Positions 1-15,560 of a stretch of 44,342 nt of DNA are shown here, piece by piece. The translations under genes and the position numbers were made by a program. Source of the stretch: a virus; the IMG/VR virus record IMGVR_UViG_3300037467_000252, positions 1 through 44,342 of that record; one strand, written 5' to 3'. The notes under the pieces are model-generated. The model ran no database searches, had not been told where the DNA came from, and saw only the letters and a program-made list of their open reading frames with translations. Numbering within the stretch: the stretch's first letter is position 1; every line of letters starts with the position of its first letter.

Positions 1-127
1 ACCAACGACCTCAGAATGTCTGATAGAAAAATGTGAGACGGCATCGACAAACTCCAGGCGGCCGGTCTCCCCCGTGCCCACGCGCGCCCGCGGTATCGCG
101 TAGGGGCGCCCTCGCGCGCACGGAGTG
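1..127. repeat. Left copy of an exact 127-bp terminal direct repeat (identical to 44216..44342)
   Basis: Read directly. Bases 1-127 (ACCAACGACCTCAGAATG...GCGCACGGAGTG) recur without mismatch as the last 127 bases of the window. Confidence 0.95.
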
Positions 128-148
128 GCAACCACGCGCGCCCGCGGT
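78..148 (+). repeat. 17-bp direct repeat CCACGCGCGCCCGCGGT (78-94 and 132-148)
   Basis: Two exact copies. One lies inside the 127-bp terminal repeat and one just outside it. Confidence 0.9.
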
Positions 149-229
149 GGTCTATCTCCACACCTTCCACCACCACACTGGTCTAACCCATTGATTTCAC
201 TAGGGGTGTGGGAGATCTGACATCCCAAC

Positions 230-512
230 GCGCACCACTCGCGCACCATACGCGCGCATGATGGGGCACTAGATCTGGTAGCCTAGTGGCCTAGAAAGGC
301 ACGACAGGCACAAGATGTTGTGCCGTGCGCTTGGTGTGGGGTGTATCAATCCGTTTTCGCACGCCTAGCGCACCATTGGCGCACCACAAGCGCACCACAA
401 GCGCACGCCTAGCGCACCACAAGCGCCACGCTGGCACAGCCCTTCAAGCGCACCACAAGCGCACCGGTAGCGCACCGATCGAACCGCTTCGGCACAGCCC
501 TTCAAGCGCACC
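230..512 (+). repeat. Array of at least 11 same-strand GCGCACC(A) motifs, partly in 11-bp phase
   Basis: GCGCACC starts at 230, 241, 368, 379, 390, 412, 448, 459, 470 and 506, with a variant GCGCACG at 401. The runs 368-412 and 448-470 are spaced exactly 11 bp. An AT-rich tract follows at about 575-640. Confidence 0.85.
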
Positions 513-513
513 A
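433..513 (+). repeat. 23-bp direct repeat GGCACAGCCCTTCAAGCGCACCA (433-455 and 491-513)
   Basis: Two exact copies embedded in the GCGCACC array. Confidence 0.9.
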
Positions 514-930
514 TTTCGACGGCTCACAGCCTACCCAAAACACCGCCACAAGCGCCACAAACGCACCGCCACGTGATTTTTTTTCGTTTGTTTTGACAGT
601 GGCTTAGGCCTCATTTCGAGGTCCATCAGTGATTTTTTTGGAATGCAGGGGTGGACAGCATTCCGGGATGGGATTACAACTCTGTCCATCGGCAGCGGCA
701 ACGCAGCCGGTCAGACCGAAGGAAACGCCGTGCGGGGCACCGGAGGTCGAGGTCTTTGACAATGTGCATCTAACGGCGCGCCGAAGGGCTCACCTAGAAC
801 GGGTGAGCGAGGCGGGTCGATAGGAACCAAGGGGACCGCTGTGAAGCGGGCTCGGGAGGGTTCCACACAACTCACAAGGCGCCATCAGGCGGGTGAGCTG
901 TGCCCTAACCCTTCCACCCTGGAGTTTCTC

Positions 931-1674
931 ATGAACGGTGCAATCATCTACCGCGGTCCCTCGATGCTGGACGGCGCTCCGATCGTGGTTGTGGCAACGG
1001 GCCTCGATGGCAAGTTTCGCAACTCTAAGACGGGCGCTCTCGTGCAAACCTGGATCATGCGGGACGATGTGAGCCCGGTCGAGGCGGTCAAGTCTGGCCT
1101 CGATGCGTCCATCTGCGGGGGCTGTGCTCATCGTGGGACCATCGAGGCGGGCAAGAACGTCGGCCGGTCCTGCTACGTCAAGGTTTTCCAGGCCCCGCTT
1201 GTGGTCTGGAAGACGGCGAAGGCGGGCAAATACGAGACCGTCGAGGCGGGCGAACTGGCCTCGATTGGCGAAGGCAAGCGCATCCGTCTCGGCTCCTACG
1301 GCGATCCTGCCGCGGTGCCTATGGCGGTCTGGGATGCCTTCCTGGCGAAGGCGGATGCCTTCACGGGCTACACCCATCAGTGGCGCGAGGCGGATCTGTC
1401 TCGCTACGTCATGGCCTCCTGTGACAGCGAGGCGGACTACATCGAGGCGAAGGCGAGGGGGTATCGGACCTTCCGCATCCGTCCCTCGATTGAGGCGCCC
1501 TTGAACCGGCGCGAAGTGGTGTGCCCTGCCTCGAAGGAGGCGGGCTACAAGACAACCTGCGCAAGCTGTGTCGCTTGTGGCGGTCACGGGGCGAAGGCGA
1601 AGGCGGACATTGCCATCGTCATCCACGGACAGGCGGCCCAAACGAAGGCGTATGCCGCTCGAATTGCGGCCTGA
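931..1674 (+). CDS. Hypothetical Cys-rich early protein (first gene from the left end)
   Basis: Part of ORF 841..1674. ATG 931 has GGAG 6 nt upstream. The translation is protein-like with CGGCAH and CASCVACGG cysteine clusters. I recognise no family. Confidence 0.6.
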   Translation: MNGAIIYRGPSMLDGAPIVVVATGLDGKFRNSKTGALVQTWIMRDDVSPVEAVKSGLDASICGGCAHRGTIEAGKNVGRSCYVKVFQAPLVVWKTAKAGKYETVEAGELASIGEGKRIRLGSYGDPAAVPMAVWDAFLAKADAFTGYTHQWREADLSRYVMASCDSEADYIEAKARGYRTFRIRPSIEAPLNRREVVCPASKEAGYKTTCASCVACGGHGAKAKADIAIVIHGQAAQTKAYAARIAA

Positions 1675-1676
1675 TG

Positions 1677-1692
1677 TATGCACCATCGAGGA
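1677..1692 (+). promoter_or_regulatory. Weak variant of the CTATSCACC intergenic motif (TATGCACCATCGAGGA)
   Basis: Lies between stop 1674 and ATG 1702. It shares CACCATCGAGGA with the copy at 42234. Confidence 0.3.
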
Positions 1693-1701
1693 TCATTCGA
1701 C

Positions 1702-1815
1702 ATGCTCAAAGAAACCGACACCACACCGGTGCTGATCGAGGCGGGCGAGTACTTCGCCCTCTCAGCCTCGGTCCTCGGCTCGATCCTCTTCGGAGTGATC
1801 ATGTTCATCCACTAA
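1702..1815 (+). CDS. Small hydrophobic protein (37 aa)
   Basis: ATG with GAGGA 9 nt upstream. Translation is MLKETDTTPVLIEAGEYFALSASVLGSILFGVIMFIH. It falls below the ORF-track length cut-off. Confidence 0.35.
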   Translation: MLKETDTTPVLIEAGEYFALSASVLGSILFGVIMFIH

Positions 1816-1816
1816 A

Positions 1817-1874
1817 GGGCGAAACTAGGCGGGCACCCGTCTAGTCCAGGCGTGAGGCGCCTGCTGATGAGCCC
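1817..1874 (+). ncRNA. Hammerhead ribozyme motif, type II (HH1); predicted scission after C1846
   Basis: GGGC 1817-1820. GAAA 1821-1824. Stem III 1824-1832 with 1837-1845. GUC 1844-1846. Stem I CAGGCG 1847-1852 with CGCCUG 1858-1863. CUGAUGA 1864-1870. GCCC 1871-1874 pairs with GGGC. Confidence 0.75.
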
Positions 1875-1914
1875 ATCAGTCAACTCTTGGCCCACCTACA
1901 GGCGAGACAGAGCC

Positions 1915-2109
1915 ATGGAAATCGTTCACCTTGTGCATCTGGTCGGTGAGTACAACGAGGTCATTGGCGTCTTCGCCAATACGCTCTTCGCGGTGTCCCT
2001 GCTCCATGGCGGGCACCACTACATCATGGTCCATGTCCGCCGCTGGCGCATCGCCAAGCGCAAGGGCCACCCGGTCAACAAGGCCGAGGAGATCCGCGAG
2101 CTGATCTAG
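1915..2109 (+). CDS. Hypothetical protein (64 aa)
   Basis: Internal ATG of ORF 1852..2109. The longer form would run through HH1. Confidence 0.45.
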   Translation: MEIVHLVHLVGEYNEVIGVFANTLFAVSLLHGGHHYIMVHVRRWRIAKRKGHPVNKAEEIRELI

Positions 2110-2132
2110 GCGGGCTCGCACAGCTTCCCACA

Positions 2133-2197
2133 GGGCGAAACGTCGGGCGCCGGTTCGGTGCCCTTCGTCCAGGCGTCAAGCGCCTGCTGATGAGCCC
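2133..2197 (+). ncRNA. Hammerhead ribozyme motif, type II (HH2); predicted scission after C2169
   Basis: GGGC 2133-2136. GAAA 2137-2140. Stem III 2140-2152 with 2156-2168 (2x2 internal loop). GUC 2167-2169. Stem I 2170-2175 with 2181-2186. CUGAUGA 2187-2193. GCCC 2194-2197. Confidence 0.75.
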
Positions 2198-2222
2198 ATC
2201 AGAATGTCCGAAGGAGCACAGT

Positions 2223-2321
2223 ATGCACGCTCTTGAGTTGCTGGGAGCCCTGTTCCTGGCGGTCGGTGCCACCACCGGTCTCGCCTTCGCGCTGGTCTAC
2301 TTCGCGGAGGAGTACCTGTGA
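2223..2321 (+). CDS. Small membrane protein (32 aa)
   Basis: AAGGAG lies 6 nt upstream of the ATG. Translation is MHALELLGALFLAVGATTGLAFALVYFAEEYL. Confidence 0.35.
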   Translation: MHALELLGALFLAVGATTGLAFALVYFAEEYL

Positions 2322-2488
2322 TGCCGACCTATCGCATCGAGAAGGTTCGCAGCGGCTGGGCCGTGACTGCGGACCATGGCGAGGCGTCACCAACCTTCCT
2401 CGCCAAGTACGACACCCGCAAGCAGGCCCGCACCATGGCTCGGCTCATGGCGGGCTGGCGCGGTCGAGTGGTGGAGGTGCGGGCATGA
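2321..2488 (+). CDS. Hypothetical protein (55 aa)
   Basis: TGATG overlap with the previous ORF. Translation starts MPTYRIEKVRSGWAVTADHGEASPTFLAKYDTRKQART. Confidence 0.4.
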   Translation: MPTYRIEKVRSGWAVTADHGEASPTFLAKYDTRKQARTMARLMAGWRGRVVEVRA

Positions 2489-2568
2489 TCCTCGTCATCA
2501 CCCTCGCCATCCTCGCCATGGGCTGTGTCGGCCTCCTCGTCTGTGACTGGGGGGAGGACGACCAGTGA
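2485..2568 (+). CDS. Tiny membrane protein (27 aa)
   Basis: ATGA overlap with the previous ORF. Translation is MILVITLAILAMGCVGLLVCDWGEDDQ, the tail of track ORF 2233..2568. Confidence 0.3.
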   Translation: MILVITLAILAMGCVGLLVCDWGEDDQ

Positions 2569-2789
2569 TCGACCCACAAGGCGCTCTCATCATCCTCTGG
2601 CTGGTCTTCTGCGCCGGCTGGATCGCCTACTGGGCCGGTGGTTGCCTCTGGCGCAACATCATCCGCCCCTGGCTGGAAATCTGGCGCAGCACAGAAGGCT
2701 TCGGCCGGCTCGTGCTGGTCTACCTCTCCCTCTGCATCGTGGTGCCGGTCGGGCTGGCGCTCCTGACCTTCTTCGGGCGGCACCATTGA
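2565..2789 (+). CDS. Membrane protein (74 aa, two hydrophobic segments)
   Basis: Track ORF. GTG start overlaps the previous stop (GTGA). Confidence 0.5.
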   Translation: MIDPQGALIILWLVFCAGWIAYWAGGCLWRNIIRPWLEIWRSTEGFGRLVLVYLSLCIVVPVGLALLTFFGRHH

Positions 2790-2962
2790 GGATCAAGCCT
2801 CTGTTCCAACGAGGCGACTTCGCCATCGGCCAGCGCATCCTCTTCGGTGCGCCGGTCATCAAGGGCACGGTGACCGCGGTGCGGCCGACCATGCTCTCGG
2901 TCCTGACGGAGGCGGGCGAGAACAAGCTCATCGCCTTCGTCCAGGTCCGCGCGACGCTCTAA
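2786..2962 (+). CDS. Hypothetical small protein (58 aa, possible TTG start)
   Basis: The tail of ORF 2525..2962 is protein-like (RIKPLFQRGDFAIGQRILFGAPVIKGTVTAV...). TTG 2786 overlaps stop 2787-2789. Confidence 0.3.
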   Translation: MRIKPLFQRGDFAIGQRILFGAPVIKGTVTAVRPTMLSVLTEAGENKLIAFVQVRATL

Positions 2963-2964
2963 GC

Positions 2965-3029
2965 CCGCCTGAAGAGGCCCCTGACGAGGGCCGAAACCTC
3001 CTCTGGTTGTGAGCCAGGGGCGGTCGCGG
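2965..3029 (+). ncRNA. Hammerhead ribozyme motif, type I (HH3); predicted scission after C3025
   Basis: Stem I CCGC 2965-2968 with GCGG 3026-3029. CUGAAGA 2969-2975. Stem II GGCCC 2976-2980 with GGGCC 2988-2992. GAAA 2993-2996. Stem III 2996-3006 with 3014-3024 (one U-C mismatch, one G-U pair). GUC 3023-3025. Confidence 0.7.
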
Positions 3030-3060
3030 CATGTCCGCATGTATGCAGGAGTGGAATGCT

Positions 3061-3546
3061 ATGGCCAAAGTGAAGGTCTACTGGAACGTCCGCGCCGGCC
3101 TCTGGAGCGTCATGGATGCTCGCACCCGGCGGGTTCTCGGAAGCGCGACCCAGGTGCTGATTCGGGATGCAACATTTCTCGTAAGCGAGGCTGGACGAGA
3201 GCGTGTCAAGCGCGAACGCTGCAAAAACGTGCATGCCTTCGTAATAGGCGATTTGGAGGCCGCGATCTGGCACTCAGCGCCTGAGGGTGCTGCCGCTTGT
3301 GAATGGGACTGGAAGCCTATGCACAACAATTACCTCCGCAACGTTGCAAATCAGCGGGGGATAAGGGTCACGTACAATCCTTATAGGGATCAAGGGTTTA
3401 GGGAGGTGCTGTCCGGTCGGCCTGTGGACAACTCGCCGGCTGCCTACCTCACCTGGGACTGCGCCGGATCTGAGGACTTGACGCCTAAGCCTCGGGTGAT
3501 GATGTTCGACCCAGGATGCGAACACAACGAGAACAAAGCTGCCTGA
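3061..3546 (+). CDS. Hypothetical protein (161 aa)
   Basis: Internal ATG of ORF 3031..3546 with AGGAG 9 nt upstream. Translation starts MAKVKVYWNVRAGLWSV and includes KNVHAFVIGD. G+C is lower than in the flanks. Confidence 0.6.
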   Translation: MAKVKVYWNVRAGLWSVMDARTRRVLGSATQVLIRDATFLVSEAGRERVKRERCKNVHAFVIGDLEAAIWHSAPEGAAACEWDWKPMHNNYLRNVANQRGIRVTYNPYRDQGFREVLSGRPVDNSPAAYLTWDCAGSEDLTPKPRVMMFDPGCEHNENKAA

Positions 3547-3605
3547 CGAGGCCCGCGAGGGGCCGAAACCTAGGGAGTAATTAAAATGCTCCCGATGGTC
3601 GCAGC
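3538..3605 (+). ncRNA. Hammerhead ribozyme motif, type I (HH4); predicted scission after C3600
   Basis: Stem I GCUGC 3538-3542 with GCAGC 3601-3605. CUGACGA 3543-3549, where UGA 3544-3546 is the stop of the upstream ORF. Stem II GGCCC 3550-3554 with GGGCC 3560-3564. GAAA 3565-3568. Stem III ACC 3568-3570 and GGGAG 3573-3577 with CUCCC 3589-3593 and GGU 3597-3599. GUC 3598-3600. Confidence 0.75.
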
Positions 3606-3772
3606 CAAGGTGTCACACAAAAGTCACCAATGCTGACTCCGCTGCCTCTAAAAAACCCCACGGAGGGGGCAAACGGCCGCGGTGAAAGACGCACCCGGAG
3701 AGCTGTGCGAGGTAGGGATGCAACCCGGCCCGCTTACCGTGAGCGCCACAACCACAACAAGAGATCACGCTG

Positions 3773-4054
3773 ATGAGACGGGACAAGCTGAACGGTATCA
3801 GTCTCAGAATGCCGTTCGTTGGGGAGGTGACGCTGCTCACTCTCCAGGGCGATTGGAAGGGTGACGGAGAACACCCGCGGCCGTTCCTGTGCCGATACCA
3901 AGAGCCCAACGACCCAGCCGTGCAGTACAACATCGGCTGGCTATCTATCCTTCGCGATCCGCCGGGGGGTTCGATCGCGCACAACGGACTCGTGATCAAG
4001 GCGCTGGGTTGCGCCACGGCAGTGCGAGCCGTTATCCTCGCACTGATAAGCTAA
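3773..4054 (+). CDS. Hypothetical protein (93 aa)
   Basis: Track ORF. It is more protein-like than the overlapping minus-strand ORF. I recognise no motif. Confidence 0.35.
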   Translation: MRRDKLNGISLRMPFVGEVTLLTLQGDWKGDGEHPRPFLCRYQEPNDPAVQYNIGWLSILRDPPGGSIAHNGLVIKALGCATAVRAVILALIS

Positions 4055-4068
4055 CCACCCTAGGAACG
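4051..4068 (+). promoter_or_regulatory. CTATSCACC-family motif variant (CTAACCACCCTAGGAACG)
   Basis: Resembles the copy at 8450 (CGATGCACCCTAGGAATG). It lies upstream of the MarR-type gene. Confidence 0.35.
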
Positions 4069-4087
4069 TGATGCAGAGTCGCATACC

Positions 4088-4127
4088 TCCTCGGGTGAAT
4101 TGTTAACACATCCTTTCACCCGGAGGA
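4088..4127 (+). promoter_or_regulatory. Imperfect inverted repeat around a central GTTAAC (candidate operator or translational hairpin)
   Basis: TCCTCGGGTGA 4088-4098 pairs with TCACCCGGAGGA 4116-4127, with one bulged base. The right arm contains the GGAGGA Shine-Dalgarno of ATG 4133. Confidence 0.4.
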
Positions 4128-4132
4128 CGTAA

Positions 4133-4630
4133 ATGGGTCAACTAGACGTTGACGCTCTGAACGAGCGCAGTAAATCTGGCCTTCTGGCCACCATGGCCCT
4201 TTCAGGAGCGAACAGTGTGAGTGCGGGAGAACTGAAAAAGTTAATGGACCGCACACAGCGGGCACTGAAGTTCCAGCGGGAACAAGGTGATCTACTGACC
4301 CCACAGGCTCTGCAAATTATGTTCAACATAGCGTTAGAGCCCGGTATTACGATGCAGAACTTACAAAAGCCGACCGGGCTTAATCTTTCATCGGTCTCCA
4401 GAAATCTATCCGCCCTCGGGAAGTATCATCGTCTAGGGAAGGAAGGTCTGGACTTCTGCGAAACTGTGCAGGACCCAATCGAGCGGCGGCGCATGATCGC
4501 CTTCCTCACCAAGAAGGGCAGGGACTTCCTGTCCAACTACCTCACGATTCTGACGGGCGAGCCGGTCTGTATCGAGAGCCCTACGAGCCACGAGTGGCTT
4601 GCCCGGCGGCACCGCCTAGCGAGCCGCTGA
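4133..4630 (+). CDS. MarR-family winged-helix transcriptional regulator (candidate lysogeny regulator)
   Basis: wHTH signature ITMQNLQKPTGLNLSSVSRNLSALGK followed by ETVQDPIERRRMIAFLTKKGRDFL. Confidence 0.7.
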   Translation: MGQLDVDALNERSKSGLLATMALSGANSVSAGELKKLMDRTQRALKFQREQGDLLTPQALQIMFNIALEPGITMQNLQKPTGLNLSSVSRNLSALGKYHRLGKEGLDFCETVQDPIERRRMIAFLTKKGRDFLSNYLTILTGEPVCIESPTSHEWLARRHRLASR

Positions 4631-4638
4631 TCCTAACG

Positions 4639-4667
4639 CCCCTGAGGCTCTACCTCGGGGGCTTTAG
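4639..4667 (+). terminator. Hairpin CCCCUGAGG-CUCUA-CCUCGGGGG followed by CUUU
   Basis: 9-bp stem with one U-G pair. It lies between the MarR-type gene and the convergent tRNA. The U-tract is short. Confidence 0.4.
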
Positions 4668-4680
4668 GCCGTTGTGAGGA

Positions 4681-4769
4681 TGGTGGCGGCTGCGGGAATC
4701 GAACCCGCACACTGCTCTCGCAGCGAGGCATTTTAAGTGCCTTGCGTCTACCGGTTTCGCCAAGCCGCC
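4681..4769 (-). tRNA. tRNA-Leu, anticodon UAA, type II (long variable arm), CCA encoded
   Basis: The reverse complement folds by hand. Acceptor GGCGGCT/AGCCGCC. 3-bp D stem GCG/CGC. Anticodon stem AGGCA/TGCCT with loop CTTAAAA. 17-nt variable arm with stem GCTGC/GCAGT. T arm GCGGG-TTCGATT-CCCGC. Then ACCA. Total 89 nt. Confidence 0.85.
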
Positions 4770-4776
4770 AGCGGAC

Positions 4777-4794
4777 CTATCCACCATAGGAGAG
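4777..4794 (+). promoter_or_regulatory. CTATSCACC-family motif (CTATCCACCATAGGAGAG) immediately upstream of int
   Basis: It begins 8 nt beyond the tRNA 5' end. Its AGGAGAG doubles as the int Shine-Dalgarno. Confidence 0.45.
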
Positions 4795-4800
4795 CTTACC

Positions 4801-5835
4801 ATGGCGACCCAGAGAGGATCGTCCTGGCAGGGGACGGTCTACCACAAGGATCTACCTGCCGGCCGCGCTCGTCGCAACTTCGAGACCAAGCGCGATGCCG
4901 AGGCCTGGGAGCACGAGAGCAAGGCCCGCCTCATGAGGGGTGAGCCCATCGACATGGGGGAGGGGCACAAGGCCGGGCAGGCTCGCAAGGCCGGTCAGCC
5001 CTACACCCTCCGCGAGCTGGTCGAGCACGTCGCTCACACCCGCTGGAAGAAGACGAGCGCCGGCATCCGGCAGCACCGGAACGCCGAGCTGATCGCGGCC
5101 ATCATCGGCCCCAACAAGCCCATCTCCGCGGTCACCAAGGTGGACGTGGACAAGGCCCGCGGCCAGCTCCTCCAGGAGGGCAACTCGCCGGCCACGGTGA
5201 ACCGCAAGGTGGCCGCGCTCTCCACGTGCCTGTCCGAGGCTGTCGAGAGCGGCATCATCCAGGCCAAGCCCAAGATGGCGAAGTACAAGGAGAGCGAGCA
5301 CCGCATCCGCCGGTTCACCCCGGAGGAGGAGGCCTTCGCCCTCTCGTTCTTCGAGCGCATGAGCGAGCCTGACATGGCCGACTACGTGGCCCTGTCCCTC
5401 GATACCGGCATGCGCCAGGGCGAGGTGCTCAACCTCCGCTTCCAGGACTGCGACACCGATAAGGCCACGGTATGGGGCACAGGAGCCAAGTCAGGGCGCA
5501 CGAGGAGCATTCCCCTCACCAAGCGCGCGAAGGCCGTCCTGGAGCGCCGTAGGGCAGGGAAGAGGCCTTCTGATCGCGTCTTCGAGGGCTGGGACCGGTA
5601 CGGCCTGGACCGGCACTGGACGAAGCTCCGGGAGGCCCTGCACCTGACGGACGATGCCCAGTTCGTGCCCCACGTCCTGCGTCACGAGTTCTGCTCGCGG
5701 CTCGCGGACAAGGGCCTGAACGCGGCGGTGATCCAGCAGCTCGCCGGCCACTCGACGCTCGCCATCACGCAACGGTACATTCACGTGAAGGCCGAGCATC
5801 TGGTCAGGGCCATTAGGGAGCTTGAAGCGGCATGA
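4801..5835 (+). CDS. int: Tyrosine recombinase / phage integrase
   Basis: C-terminal catalytic region HVLRHEFCSRLADKGLN...LAGHSTLAITQRYIH carries the R, H-x-x-R and Y signature. The protein has an N-terminal SAM-like core-binding region. Confidence 0.9.
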   Translation: MATQRGSSWQGTVYHKDLPAGRARRNFETKRDAEAWEHESKARLMRGEPIDMGEGHKAGQARKAGQPYTLRELVEHVAHTRWKKTSAGIRQHRNAELIAAIIGPNKPISAVTKVDVDKARGQLLQEGNSPATVNRKVAALSTCLSEAVESGIIQAKPKMAKYKESEHRIRRFTPEEEAFALSFFERMSEPDMADYVALSLDTGMRQGEVLNLRFQDCDTDKATVWGTGAKSGRTRSIPLTKRAKAVLERRRAGKRPSDRVFEGWDRYGLDRHWTKLREALHLTDDAQFVPHVLRHEFCSRLADKGLNAAVIQQLAGHSTLAITQRYIHVKAEHLVRAIRELEAA

Positions 5836-7802: not shown

Positions 7803-7820
7803 CTATGCACCATAGGGAAC
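7803..7820 (+). promoter_or_regulatory. CTATSCACC-family motif (CTATGCACCATAGGGAAC), the most T7-promoter-like copy
   Basis: CACCATAGGGAAC 7808-7820 matches the T7 consensus CACTATAGGGAGA at 10 of 13 positions. Confidence 0.5.
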
Positions 7821-7827
7821 CATTTCG

Positions 7828-8449: not shown

Positions 8450-8467
8450 CGATGCACCCTAGGAATG
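8450..8467 (+). promoter_or_regulatory. CTATSCACC-family motif variant (CGATGCACCCTAGGAATG)
   Basis: Intergenic, about 36 nt upstream of the RNAP ATG. Confidence 0.4.
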
Positions 8468-8502
8468 ATCCTTATCAACGACCACGCATAGACGAGGTAC
8501 TT

Positions 8503-11010
8503 ATGTTGACCATTGAAGAGGCCATGAAGCTCCCGAACTGGGAGAAGCAAGTGGAACTGGAGACTGACATGCGGTCTCTGGGCATCGAGAAGTTCCGCAA
8601 AGCTGCGGAGAAGGCCAAGGAGAAGGGTCAGGAGACCCGGATGGCTCCAGTTCGTCGGATGATGATGGACTGCCACGAGAAGATGCTGGCTGCTCTCCAC
8701 GAGTTCTACGCTGAAGTGGAGGCCAAGAAGGCTGGTCGGAAGCACAGCGCCTATCCGTACCTGAAGGGCATCGACCACGACGATCTGGTCGCCCACGTCA
8801 CGTGCAAGGTGATCCTGGACGTGGCCGTGCAGCGCAAGAGCCTGTCCCACGTCGCGGTCATGATCGCGGAGATGCTGGAGGACGAGTGCAACTTCCGCCT
8901 GTTCAAGGAGCAGCACACCGCCGGCTACCTGAAGGCCGTGTCCCGCGTGAAGGACAAGACCAACGAGCGGTACAAGCGCCGGTCGGTGAAGGCCACCGCC
9001 TCGAAGCTGGGCGTCAACCTCCTGGAGTGGCCCAAGCGGGACATGATCCTGGTCGGCTCGAAGCTGATCGAGATGTTCGTGGAGGCGACCCACTGCGCCC
9101 GTGTGGTCGATGGGATCGGCAACCGGAAGGTGGTCGAGAGCGTGCCTGAGGCCCGTGCCTGGATCGAGGAGGAGAGCCGGCGCTGTGAGCTGCTGACCCC
9201 GCAGTTCATGCCCTGCGTGATCCCCCCGAAGCCTTGGACGACCCCCTACGATGGCGGCTACTGGACCGGCCGGGCGCGCAAGCTGGTGCTCGTGAAGAGC
9301 CCGAACCGGGCCTACCTGGAGGATCTGGCCGACCGGCCCATGCCGATCGTCTACGAAGCCGTCAACGCGCTCCAGAACACCGGCTGGACGATCAACCCGA
9401 TGGTCCTGGAGGTCATGACCTACCTCTTCGAGCGGAACTCCCGCTGCGGTGTGGTTCCGCAGATCAAGCCCGAGAAGGAGCCTAACAAGCCCCTGTGGCT
9501 GGTCGAGGGGCTGAAGAAGGAGGACATGACCCCCGAGCAGCTCGAAGAGTTCATCGCCTGGAAGAGCCGGGCCACCGAGGTGATCGAAAAGAACGCCGAG
9601 CAGCTCTCCAAGAGCAAGGCCTTCAACTCGATGCTGGGCGTGGCCAAGCGGTTCAAGGACGAGCCCGCCTTCTACTACCCCTACCAGCTCGACTGGCGCG
9701 GCAGGGCCTACCCCGTGGGCCTGTACCTCCAGCCGCAGGGCAACGACGCCCAGCGTGGCCTGCTCCAGTTCGCTGACTTCGTGGCGATCGAGGACCAGGA
9801 GGCTGCGAACTGGCTGATGATCCACGGCGCAGGACTGTGGGGCAAGGACAAGGGCTCCTTCGAGGACCGCATCGAGTGGATCAAGCAGCACGAGGAGCAG
9901 ATCTTGGCCTCCGCGGCTGACCCGTATGAGAACCGCTTCTGGATGTACGAGGAGAAGGACGGCAAGATGGAAGACAACGAGAAGGCTTGGCAGGCCCTGG
10001 CGTTCTGCTTCGACTACGCTGGCTTCGTGCGTGAGGGCTTCGGATACATGAGCCGTCTGCCGATCCAGATGGACGGGACTTGCAACGGCATCCAAAATTT
10101 CTCGGCTATGCTGCTCGATGCCCGCGGCGGTGCTGCGGTCAACCTCGTCCCGGCTGACAAGCCCCAGGACATCTACTCCGAGGTCATGGAGGTGGTGAAG
10201 AAGCGGGTCGCGGAGGATGCTGCCGGTGGTGGCAAGCCCGAGCACCAGCCCCTGGCGGCTATGTGGGTCGGCAACATCGTCCGCAAGACGGTCAAGCGGC
10301 CCGTCATGACCCTGGCCTACGGCGCCAAGCGGTTCGGCTTCACCGACATGGTGATGCAGGACACGGTGCGCGTCTGGAAGAAGGAGCGTCCCGAGACGTA
10401 TCCCTTCGGCACGCAGGGGTTCCAGGCTGCGCAGTACCTGGGTGGCTGCATCTGGGAGGCTGTGCAGGAGGTCGTGGTCGCCGCTGCGGAGGCCATGCGC
10501 TGGCTCCAGGACGTAGCCCGCATCGTCTCGAAGGAGGCTCTGCCGATCTACTGGACCACGCCCACGGGCCTGCTCGTCCTCCAGCAGTACAAGCTGCGGG
10601 ACATGAAGAACATCCTGATGACGTTCCAGAAGGTCGTGATCCAGGTGAAGGTGGACAAAGGATCAGACAAGCTGGACAGCAAGAAACAGGCATCCGGCAT
10701 CGCACCGAACTGGGTCCATAGTCTGGATGCCAGCCACATGATGCTGACTATTCGTGCCGCAATGCATGCAGGGGTGCATAGTTTCTCTTTCATCCACGAC
10801 AGCTACGGCACCCACGCGGGCAACACGGCGAAGCTCGCGCGCATCCTGCGGGAGGAGTTCGTGAAGATGTACGGGGGCGAGTGCGTCCTGGAGCGGTTCC
10901 GTGCCGACCTCCAGGCCATGCTGCCCGAGGGCGTTCAGCTCCCACCGGTGCCGACCAAAGGCTCGCTGGACCTGAACCAAGTGCTTGAGAGCAAATTCTT
11001 TTTTGCCTGA
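8503..11010 (+). CDS. T7-like single-subunit DNA-directed RNA polymerase
   Basis: PIQMDGTCNGIQNFSAMLLD, FIHDSYGTH and the C-terminal FFFA match T7 RNAP motifs (DGSCSGIQHFSAML, HDSFGT, FAFA). ATG 8503 has GAGG upstream. The longer track start at 8452 would overlap the intergenic motif. Confidence 0.95.
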   Translation: MLTIEEAMKLPNWEKQVELETDMRSLGIEKFRKAAEKAKEKGQETRMAPVRRMMMDCHEKMLAALHEFYAEVEAKKAGRKHSAYPYLKGIDHDDLVAHVTCKVILDVAVQRKSLSHVAVMIAEMLEDECNFRLFKEQHTAGYLKAVSRVKDKTNERYKRRSVKATASKLGVNLLEWPKRDMILVGSKLIEMFVEATHCARVVDGIGNRKVVESVPEARAWIEEESRRCELLTPQFMPCVIPPKPWTTPYDGGYWTGRARKLVLVKSPNRAYLEDLADRPMPIVYEAVNALQNTGWTINPMVLEVMTYLFERNSRCGVVPQIKPEKEPNKPLWLVEGLKKEDMTPEQLEEFIAWKSRATEVIEKNAEQLSKSKAFNSMLGVAKRFKDEPAFYYPYQLDWRGRAYPVGLYLQPQGNDAQRGLLQFADFVAIEDQEAANWLMIHGAGLWGKDKGSFEDRIEWIKQHEEQILASAADPYENRFWMYEEKDGKMEDNEKAWQALAFCFDYAGFVREGFGYMSRLPIQMDGTCNGIQNFSAMLLDARGGAAVNLVPADKPQDIYSEVMEVVKKRVAEDAAGGGKPEHQPLAAMWVGNIVRKTVKRPVMTLAYGAKRFGFTDMVMQDTVRVWKKERPETYPFGTQGFQAAQYLGGCIWEAVQEVVVAAAEAMRWLQDVARIVSKEALPIYWTTPTGLLVLQQYKLRDMKNILMTFQKVVIQVKVDKGSDKLDSKKQASGIAPNWVHSLDASHMMLTIRAAMHAGVHSFSFIHDSYGTHAGNTAKLARILREEFVKMYGGECVLERFRADLQAMLPEGVQLPPVPTKGSLDLNQVLESKFFFA

Positions 11011-15540: not shown

Positions 15541-15560
15541 CTTATCCACCCTAGAGGAGC
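15541..15560 (+). promoter_or_regulatory. CTATSCACC-family motif (CTTATCCACCCTAGAGGAGC)
   Basis: It lies directly upstream of the DNA polymerase gene. Confidence 0.45.

Follow-up and report, generated by a model that had tools for sequence, protein, structure and literature searches.

Two loci on the + strand of a 44,342-nucleotide (nt) stretch of viral DNA (IMG/VR record IMGVR_UViG_3300037467_000252, the whole of which is called the window below) have the organization of type II hammerhead ribozymes. Judged from their sequence, it is very probable that both are functional type II hammerheads in an early rightward polycistronic RNA that would process itself at gene boundaries. Phage type II hammerheads have been known since 2011, and the elements in the window are a variant of that kind that is pseudoknot-free and bears a 3′ tail. 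An earlier note on this DNA had described both motifs, and on direct reading of the sequence its coordinates are exact to the base. It had missed the conserved A immediately 5′ of stem II, termed A(−1), the conserved tail AUCAG, and the potential of this tail to pair with the catalytic core. The two loci are composed as follows.

1816–1874, + strand: hammerhead copy 1, from A(−1) to the end of stem II, located by sequence, descriptor and the covariance models R1 and R2; 1816–1879 when the tail is included
1816, + strand: A(−1) of copy 1
1817–1820, + strand: GGGC, 3′ strand of stem II of copy 1
1821–1823, + strand: G12, A13 and A14 of copy 1 (GAAA 1821–1824)
1824–1845, + strand: stem III hairpin of copy 1, 1824–1832 paired with 1837–1845 (9 base pairs (bp) including G1829-U1840), loop GCAC
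1846, + strand: C17 of copy 1, with the predicted cut 3′ of C1846
1847–1863, + strand: stem I hairpin of copy 1, 1847–1852 paired with 1858–1863, loop UGAGG
1864–1870, + strand: CUGAUGA, C3 to A9 of copy 1
1871–1874, + strand: GCCC, 5′ strand of stem II of copy 1
1875–1879, + strand: tail AUCAG of copy 1
2132–2197, + strand: hammerhead copy 2, from A(−1) to the end of stem II, located by sequence, descriptor, a sub-threshold match to Rfam RF02276, R1 and R2; 2132–2202 when the tail is included
2132, + strand: A(−1) of copy 2
2133–2136, + strand: GGGC of copy 2
2137–2139, + strand: GAA of copy 2 (GAAA 2137–2140)
2140–2168, + strand: stem III of copy 2, 2140–2152 paired with 2156–2168 as 3 + 8 bp flanking a 2x2 internal loop
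2169, + strand: C17 of copy 2, with the predicted cut 3′ of C2169
2170–2186, + strand: stem I hairpin of copy 2, 2170–2175 paired with 2181–2186, loop UCAAG
2187–2193, + strand: CUGAUGA of copy 2
2194–2197, + strand: GCCC of copy 2
2198–2202, + strand: tail AUCAG of copy 2

Both copies read GGGC-GAAA-(hairpin III)-GUC-(CAGGCG-5 nt-CGCCUG)-CUGAUGA-GCCC. Their 5′ and 3′ ends lie in stem II, with stems I and III closed by loops, which is the type II topology. The catalytic core is complete in each, comprising C3 to A9, G12, A13 and A14, the A15.1-U16.1 pair, H17 and the G10.1-C11.1 pair, and the cleavage triplet is the optimal GUC. The full hammerhead core in a permutation open at stem II, as claimed in the earlier note, is confirmed by the sequence and by a strict type II descriptor (CUGANGA, GAAA, U16.1, H17 other than G, stem I of at least 4 bp, stems II and III of at least 3 bp). 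On the + strand of the window this descriptor matches exactly the two loci. It has no match on either strand of 300 dinucleotide-preserving shuffles of the whole window, which excludes a chance motif. Two further claims hold on the sequence: the stem III sequences are unrelated yet both pair, with a differing loop I, and each copy lies between a stop codon and the next start, the stops ending at 1815 (TAA) and 2109 (TAG) and the next ATGs lying at 1915 and 2223. A 36-nt block common to the two copies at 94% identity extends over stem I, core and stem II and five bases more, pointing to one origin plus duplication and not to two independent chance events.

Further evidence comes from relatives. 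We searched IMG/VR with the skeleton GGGCGAAA-N10-40-GTC-N13-30-CTGATGAGCCC, in which both hairpins are left unspecified, and obtained 50 loci. All 49 distinct instances, the window's two included, form stem I (6–8 bp) and stem III from unrelated sequences. Within a 37-sequence alignment 98.7% of the cells are paired, compared with 26–42% when the partners are slid, and in nine pairs both partners change. Covariation scores 0.640 in this alignment and 0.141 in shuffled ones, none of 500 shuffles reaching the former value. An independent set gives four helices that are 100% paired, against 27–48% when slid. Stem I is paired in 100% of cells, with 5–6 of its 6 pairs changed on both sides, and stem III in 96–100%, with 3–4 of 5 pairs so changed. 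The covariation is of the RNA type with G-U pairs included, and a DNA repeat was rejected as an explanation because the pattern of conservation obeys RNA pairing rules.

A covariance model built from the 37-sequence skeleton alignment, window copies included (R1), finds 83 copies in the 50 loci, 30 of which deviate from the skeleton. The stem II strands in this sample are GGGC/GCCC, GGAC/GUCC, GGCC/GGCC, GAUC/GAUC, GGUC/GACC, GUCC/GGAC and AGCC/GGCU. Stem II is paired in 77 of 79 instances in the R1 sample and in 98 of 100 among the listed matches of the tail scan described below, with 7–9 sequence combinations. The earlier note had seen a weak point in a stem II of only four G-C pairs; 4 bp is instead the length conserved across the family. 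In all, stems I, II and III covary in about 180 distinct relatives. Throughout these roughly 180 instances 13 positions of the catalytic core and the cleavage triplet GUC are invariant, and the sole core position to vary is N7 (U, C or A), which the hammerhead consensus leaves free.

R1 scores copy 1 at 69.5 bits and copy 2 at 62.2 bits. Since it was trained on the window copies, we built an independent model, R2, from 54 sequences obtained with a different pattern, none of which has the stem I or stem II of the window. With R2 copy 1 scores 63.2 bits (E 4.8e-14) and copy 2 57.7 bits (E 1.2e-12), and the best match remaining in the window reaches 12.1 bits. A search of the window for further copies using both R1 and R2 with filters off gave none above 12 bits. 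Overall, the skeleton search yields hundreds of relatives in viral and bacterial contigs. In other contigs there are same-strand clusters of 4–7 copies spaced by 250–1700 nt, and some phages evidently punctuate whole operons with this hammerhead subclass. The largest clusters are of 7 copies, in contig L018 (within 5.4 kb) and in L028; L007, L090 (a Salinarimonas metagenome-assembled genome (MAG)) and L079 (a Lysobacterales MAG) have 4 each.

Selection can be followed in an orthologous phage. Contig L031 (42.5 kb, from an IMG genome project) encodes proteins 45–90% identical to those of the window in conserved order, and it has two hammerheads at the same two gene boundaries, flanked by proteins 62–90% identical to their counterparts. 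The core and stem I are identical to those of the window and loop I differs. Stem III is rewritten yet still pairs, copy 1 differing in length by 10 nt, and in copy 2 the change of N7 from U to C occurs together with A to G in the tail. The earlier note had held that non-compensatory changes or core substitutions in a related phage would speak against it; here the core is intact and the changes are compensatory. Its claim of a type II hammerhead motif selected for RNA structure is thus supported by the core, the covariation, the independent model and the orthologous phage. A lineage-specific pattern matches only L002 and L031 among viral contigs, and close orthologs are therefore few. In a further contig (L037), whose terminase is 62% identical to that of the window, a copy lies about 3 kb downstream of the terminase gene and on the same strand.

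Type II hammerheads are common in bacteria, often near integrases or prophages and often clustered around single genes (PMC3088659). Clustered prophage hammerheads cleave in vitro and in vivo, and a role in processing long phage transcripts has been proposed (Perreault 2011, PMC3088659). In the type II consensus loop I and the 3′ tail form a pseudoknot of 4 bp or more, which most examples have, though not all (PMC3088659). In the window, the 5-nt loops UGAGG and UCAAG have no complement of 4 nt or more in the tails AUCAGUCAAC and AUCAGAAUGU. A loop I-tail pseudoknot was ruled out for both copies, there being no such complementarity.

The subclass has a different signature. A(−1) is present in 76 of 79 instances in the R1 sample and in 99 of 100 among the tail-scan matches listed; among the latter, loop I begins with U in 98 of 100 and the stem I hairpin is 17–18 nt long in 99 of 100. 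No search pattern prescribed A(−1), the loop I U or the length of stem I. In 40 of 49 skeleton instances a purine (A or G) directly follows stem II. In the crystal structures of the hammerheads from Schistosoma and from the tobacco ringspot virus satellite (sTRSV) RNA the U at the 5′ end of loop 1 makes a reverse Hoogsteen pair with the A at the 3′ end of loop 2 (Dufour et al., PMC2632901). In the type II permutation this 3′ A of loop 2 corresponds to the base 5′ of GGGC, from which we infer that the subclass, its loop 2 being open, would rely on the classical contact between the loops.

Joined to the final C of stem II, the tail AUCAG can pair with C3–G8 of the core. The resulting 6-bp hairpin is mutually exclusive with both the catalytic core and stem II. 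It takes the following form in the two copies.

1864–1879, + strand: tail hairpin of copy 1, CUGAUG 1864–1869 paired with CAUCAG 1874–1879, loop AGCC
2187–2202, + strand: tail hairpin of copy 2, CUGAUG 2187–2192 paired with CAUCAG 2197–2202

This helix covaries. In a first sample, collected blind to the tail, about a quarter of the instances bear one; N7 and the tail base facing it (N′) are then U with A (13) or G (1), and C with G in 7 of 7. We scanned for the tail by requiring the skeleton and UCAG, while N7, N′ and the central part of stem II could vary, and this matched at least 119 loci. Among the matches listed there are 100 distinct well-folded instances, with about 90 contigs and stem I sequences represented. 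N7:N′ is U:A in 60 of these, C:G in 37, U:G in 2 and U:U in 1, an association with Fisher p = 3e-25. Alignment A4 gives UA 32, CG 21 and UG 1 at the same pair. In the searchable literature we found no natural hammerhead helix that sequesters the core, only engineered cis-blocking designs, and this is absence of evidence only. The tail-bearing strings are absent from the text supplementary files of Perreault et al., among which their large alignment is probably not included. No earlier description seems to exist of a covarying helix in competition with the active fold.

The elements are closely fitted to the genes on either side, which in the window are the following.

1702–1815, + strand: upstream small open reading frame (ORF) of 37 amino acids (aa) from ATG 1702, or 45 aa from ATG 1678 (ORF list)
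1915–2109, + strand: 64-aa ORF bracketed by both ribozymes (ORF list)
2223–2321, + strand: 32-aa ORF downstream of copy 2 (ORF list; its ATG is aligned in L031)

The product of the first has a counterpart of 62% identity at the syntenic position in L031, and that of the 64-aa ORF is 73% identical there with its ATG conserved. The TAA of the upstream ORF (1813–1815) directly precedes A(−1) of copy 1, a boundary that has the overlapping UAG form in L031. Copy 2 begins 23 nt downstream of its upstream stop and is followed by a Shine-Dalgarno sequence, GAAGGAG, 7 nt after the tail and by the ATG 20 nt after it. Among the matches listed, the upstream stop ends between −3 and +1 of A(−1) in 68 of 93 tail-bearing instances. 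In 36 of the 93 it is a UAG whose G is the first of stem II and whose U and A are U(−2) and A(−1), so that the ribozyme and the stop codon physically overlap. In these tail-bearing instances the sequence downstream of the tail is A-rich, with median distances of 11 nt to the Shine-Dalgarno sequence and 24.5 nt to the start. A same-strand open frame spans 16% of hammerhead sites compared with 46% of random positions. Flanking predicted genes are co-oriented with the ribozyme in 80% of cases. For the clusters, a crude gene caller based on third-position GC content (GC3) performed poorly on lower-GC contigs, and their gene-by-gene context was not used.

We propose that each RNA folds as a three-way junction, in which the outermost segments would form the 4-bp stem II and stems III and I would stand as hairpins. 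The active shape would be held by the first U of loop I contacting the A just 5′ of stem II. Self-cutting 3′ of C1846 and C2169 would leave a 2′,3′-cyclic phosphate and a 5′-OH and split the transcript at gene boundaries, freeing the 64-aa ORF as a monocistronic mRNA if both sites were cut. The upstream fragment would retain its stop codon and finish in the stem III hairpin; the predicted 5′ product has a 1-nt overhang after this hairpin. The downstream fragment would start at its first nucleotide with the stem I hairpin, abutting the hairpin formed by C3–G8 and the tail, followed by the A-rich leader and the ribosome-binding site. Folding of the 3′ product with ViennaRNA gives these two abutting hairpins from the first nucleotide at −16.2 kcal/mol. 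The tail hairpin would mainly lock the cut state and shield the new 5′ end, and the cassette would insulate neighboring cistrons in stability and translation. We infer both cleavage in vivo and the identity of the transcribing polymerase.

Several observations weigh against this assignment. Comparison with the Rfam hammerhead models, as the earlier note had suggested, had a divided outcome. In a permissive scan of 1700–2300, RF02276 (Hammerhead_II) aligns copy 2 end to end (model positions 1–66), at 15.8 bits against a gathering threshold of 37 (E 2.4), and copy 1 is unlisted at E ≤ 10. At the gathering threshold Rfam reports only a tRNA in the window. Other permissive matches in 1700–2300 (sR34, mir-57, and Guanidine-III on the minus strand at 12.9 bits) were dismissed as noise. 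RF02276 gives 27–36 bits for four of the seven copies in L018 and leaves the other three unlisted at E ≤ 1; at the gathering threshold it detects no copy in L018 or L031. Its consensus is built around a larger loop I and another 3′ tail, and a low score therefore carries little weight. The sub-threshold score is a property of the RF02276 consensus and not of the motifs in the window.

The same scores could be taken to mean that the loci are a conserved, non-cleaving RNA or DNA structure with only a likeness to a hammerhead, for instance one bound by a protein or targeted by an RNase, or a terminator or operator. Cleavage of the window copies is a prediction, and the strong stem I hairpin could serve as a generic stabilizer. 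We find this hardly credible, given that the bases held invariant are just those of the core and GUC with N7 alone left to vary, that the element is strand-specific, and that the covariation is that of an RNA with G-U pairs. No T-run follows the element and the terminator scan is empty there; an intrinsic terminator was rejected on the grounds that neither locus has a terminator-like site or T-run.

Transcription and gene function also count on the negative side. Scans of 1–5000 for sigma-70 promoters and intrinsic terminators returned nothing above chance, and the early transcription unit is assumed from gene orientation and the annotated layout of Pseudomonas phage LUZ100. The flanking small ORFs matched no PHROG family.

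A further difficulty lies in the folding. With ViennaRNA the active fold and the tail conformer have energies of −29.2 and −28.8 kcal/mol for copy 1, and −34.3 and −33.9 kcal/mol for copy 2. The inactive tail conformer is thus within 0.4 kcal/mol of the active fold in the nearest-neighbor model, whose energies ignore tertiary contacts. Moreover, the minimum free energy (MFE) structure of copy 2, at −38.2 kcal/mol, is a third, inactive fold in which GGGCGAA 2133–2139 pairs with UUCGUCC 2164–2170, burying the 3′ strand of stem II, G12–A14 and the cleavage site. This MFE fold is only partly conserved in L031 and may be incidental. With such competing folds modeled, a sizeable fraction of the molecules could be inactive or slow.

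The near-equality of the two conformers before cleavage invites another role for the tail in an otherwise real ribozyme. The tail helix might be a regulatory OFF switch, in which stem II is opened by a ribosome as it terminates, leaving the core to be captured by the tail hairpin; whether the upstream ORF is being translated would then decide cleavage, or cleavage would be held back as by a timer. The covariation, which places the tail under selection, and the proximity of stop codons to A(−1), including those that take in the stem II G, fit such a switch, and a local 6-bp hairpin would be expected to outpace a junction-closing 4-bp stem during folding. However, the tail is found in about a quarter of the tail-blind sample whereas juxtaposition to a stop is general, and the two are thus not obligatorily linked. 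The stop upstream of copy 2 is also too distant for a terminating ribosome to reach stem II, and simple genome compaction could equally explain the adjacency. We consider the OFF switch possible but rather doubtful. A naturally bistable hammerhead, with its core reversibly sequestered by five extra nucleotides and its cleavage gated by ribosomes or timed, is likewise a tentative proposal. We favor a tail that acts as product lock and 5′-end shield over one that acts as a switch.

The likeness of the two copies raises the question of whether they are first and foremost a cassette that is selfish or mobile, or one that duplication or gene conversion has placed at gene boundaries, with little role in phage expression. 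The 36-nt block shared by the window copies despite their different stems III would suit this, as would L017, L040 and L030, each of which has two copies with identical stem I. The flanked genes vary across phages (see also PMC3088659). Unrelated viral contigs carry the motif, as do genome bins from many phyla; among the matches in the bins about half reach only 20–27 bits with R1 and were not counted as members. Against this, L031 keeps both elements at orthologous boundaries between proteins of 62–77% identity, with the catalytic bases kept and the changes compensatory. The precise register with stop codon and Shine-Dalgarno sequence argues for integration into gene expression, and no target-site duplication or mobilizing enzyme was noticed, without a dedicated search. 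A predominantly selfish origin therefore seems improbable to us, and we continue to regard the loci as self-processing elements of the phage transcript.

The window is the complete genome of a T7-like temperate phage. All of its long ORFs are on the + strand. By Pfam they encode a single-subunit RNA polymerase (RNAP) (8452–11010), a T7-type primase-helicase, a family A DNA polymerase, portal, scaffold and terminase proteins, and a tyrosine integrase (4801–5835). By RNAP the closest named phages are Rhizobium RHEph01, RHEph21 and TRX32-1 (47.5–48.1% identity) and Pseudomonas LUZ100 (46.5%). The temperate T7-like phages RHEph01, RHEph21 and TRX32-1, plus LUZ100, have the tRNA-integrase-RNAP layout in common, and in LUZ100 host-specific promoters are annotated to the left of the integrase. 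Both motifs lie left of this block, which by comparison with LUZ100 places them in the early region. At the DNA level 1500–2600 has no match in 50,697 phage records. A tRNA-Leu(UAA) gene with a long variable arm (4681–4769, − strand) lies directly upstream of the integrase gene; this arrangement recurs in LUZ100, RHEph01, RHEph21 and L031. This tRNA-Leu/integrase region probably carries attP.

Searching RHEph01, RHEph21 and LUZ100 with R1 revealed no member of the subclass, only a divergent site in RHEph01. This site (L092, NC_047738.1, approximately 2075–2140, in the gp04-gp05 spacer) is an unannotated type II hammerhead that we recognized by eye from a 12-bit partial match. It reads GCC-GAAA-stem III-GUC-stem I-CUGACGA-U-GGC, and its loop I GGCA is complementary to the tail UGCC. 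In RHEph21 (L093) 23001–23036 matches the Rfam abiF RNA (RF03085) at 38 bits against a gathering threshold of 37, adjoining a tRNA-Asn; this match is possibly spurious.

Two other sequence features of the window were noted. The motif TATGCACCATnGnGnAWC occurs five times on the + strand (1677–1694, 2777–2794, 4778–4795, 7804–7821 and 15543–15560), where 0.78 matches in total would be expected by chance on both strands. The copies at 1677, 4778, 7804 and 15543 lie 23–25 nt upstream of the starts at 1702, 4801 (integrase), 7828 and 15566 (DNA polymerase). The motif ends in a Shine-Dalgarno sequence, resembles the ...TATAGGGAGA end of T7 promoters, and may be a conserved leader or a promoter for the phage RNAP. 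In L031 the copy at 1677 is preserved in full (100%), and a transcript from this copy would cross both ribozymes. At the left genome end, upstream of the first gene, 224–566 contains direct repeats with a period of about 11 bp (GCGCACCACAA and variants, up to 11 copies), whose helical-turn spacing suggests a protein-binding array, such as iterons, operators or a packaging or end feature.

The role of bacterial and phage hammerheads was still only ‘suggested’ in a 2019 review (PMC6765202). The window offers a clean case, in which a complete T7-like temperate phage has two ribozymes bracketing one 64-aa early gene and an ortholog confirms selection. The cassette keeps a fixed register both with the stop codon that precedes it and with the ribosome-binding site that follows. 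The helix between core and tail could explain how phages make cleavage irreversible or conditional. If the bistable interpretation were true, this would be a natural switch on a self-cleaving ribozyme requiring neither protein nor ligand and widespread in phages, and phage hammerheads would be regulatory and not merely processing elements. A large pseudoknot-free type II subclass lies below the Rfam threshold and is consequently missed by phage annotation pipelines. The cultured phage RHEph01 itself carries an unannotated hammerhead, and function could be tested in that phage. From the likeness to RiboJ set out below, natural cassettes could serve as compact insulator parts.

The window elements have the catalytic core and the circular permutation, open at stem II and capped on stems I and III, of the type II hammerheads of Perreault et al. 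and of RF02276. As with the former, they live in phages and prophages, often near integrases, with copies flanking single genes or short blocks, and the proposed role is the processing of long phage transcripts. They differ in that the pseudoknot between loop I and tail is replaced by a 5-nt loop I with the U/3′-A signature, in that the 3′ tail pairs with the catalytic core instead of loop I, and in scoring below the gathering threshold of RF02276.

With the hammerheads of sTRSV, chrysanthemum chlorotic mottle viroid (CChMVd) and Schistosoma the subclass shares equivalent positions for the loop I U and the A 5′ of GGGC, 98–99% conserved, and the frequent purine after stem II fits their R...A opposition. 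Those are, however, type I and III ribozymes from viroids, satellites and repeats, used in rolling-circle replication, whereas here loop 2 is open, its residues being the two flanks of the element, and the contact is deduced from sequence. The RHEph01 hammerhead is likewise of type II and in an early intergenic spacer, within the nearest named phage group (RNAP 48%) and the same tRNA-integrase-RNAP layout. It differs in having a 3-bp stem II, a U inserted after A9, a longer loop I and the classical pseudoknot, and in lacking the core-pairing tail.

Between the early genes of T7, RNase III, a host protein enzyme, cuts long hairpins to give individual mRNAs with hairpin ends. Both systems are intercistronic in an early operon and would have this same outcome, but the phage RNA studied here would cut itself without host RNases, leaving 5′-OH and 2′,3′-cyclic phosphate ends, and belongs to a separate class. 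The insulator RiboJ consists, as described in PMC8794103 (citing Lou 2012 and Clifton 2018), of the sTRSV hammerhead followed by a 23-nt hairpin. It too has a hammerhead followed directly by a hairpin upstream of a ribosome-binding site, giving after the cut a defined structured 5′ end whatever the upstream context; it is engineered and derived from type III, and the added hairpin has a sequence of its own. The phage cassette, by contrast, makes its second hairpin out of the core of the ribozyme and five extra nucleotides, and this hairpin therefore competes with the active fold.

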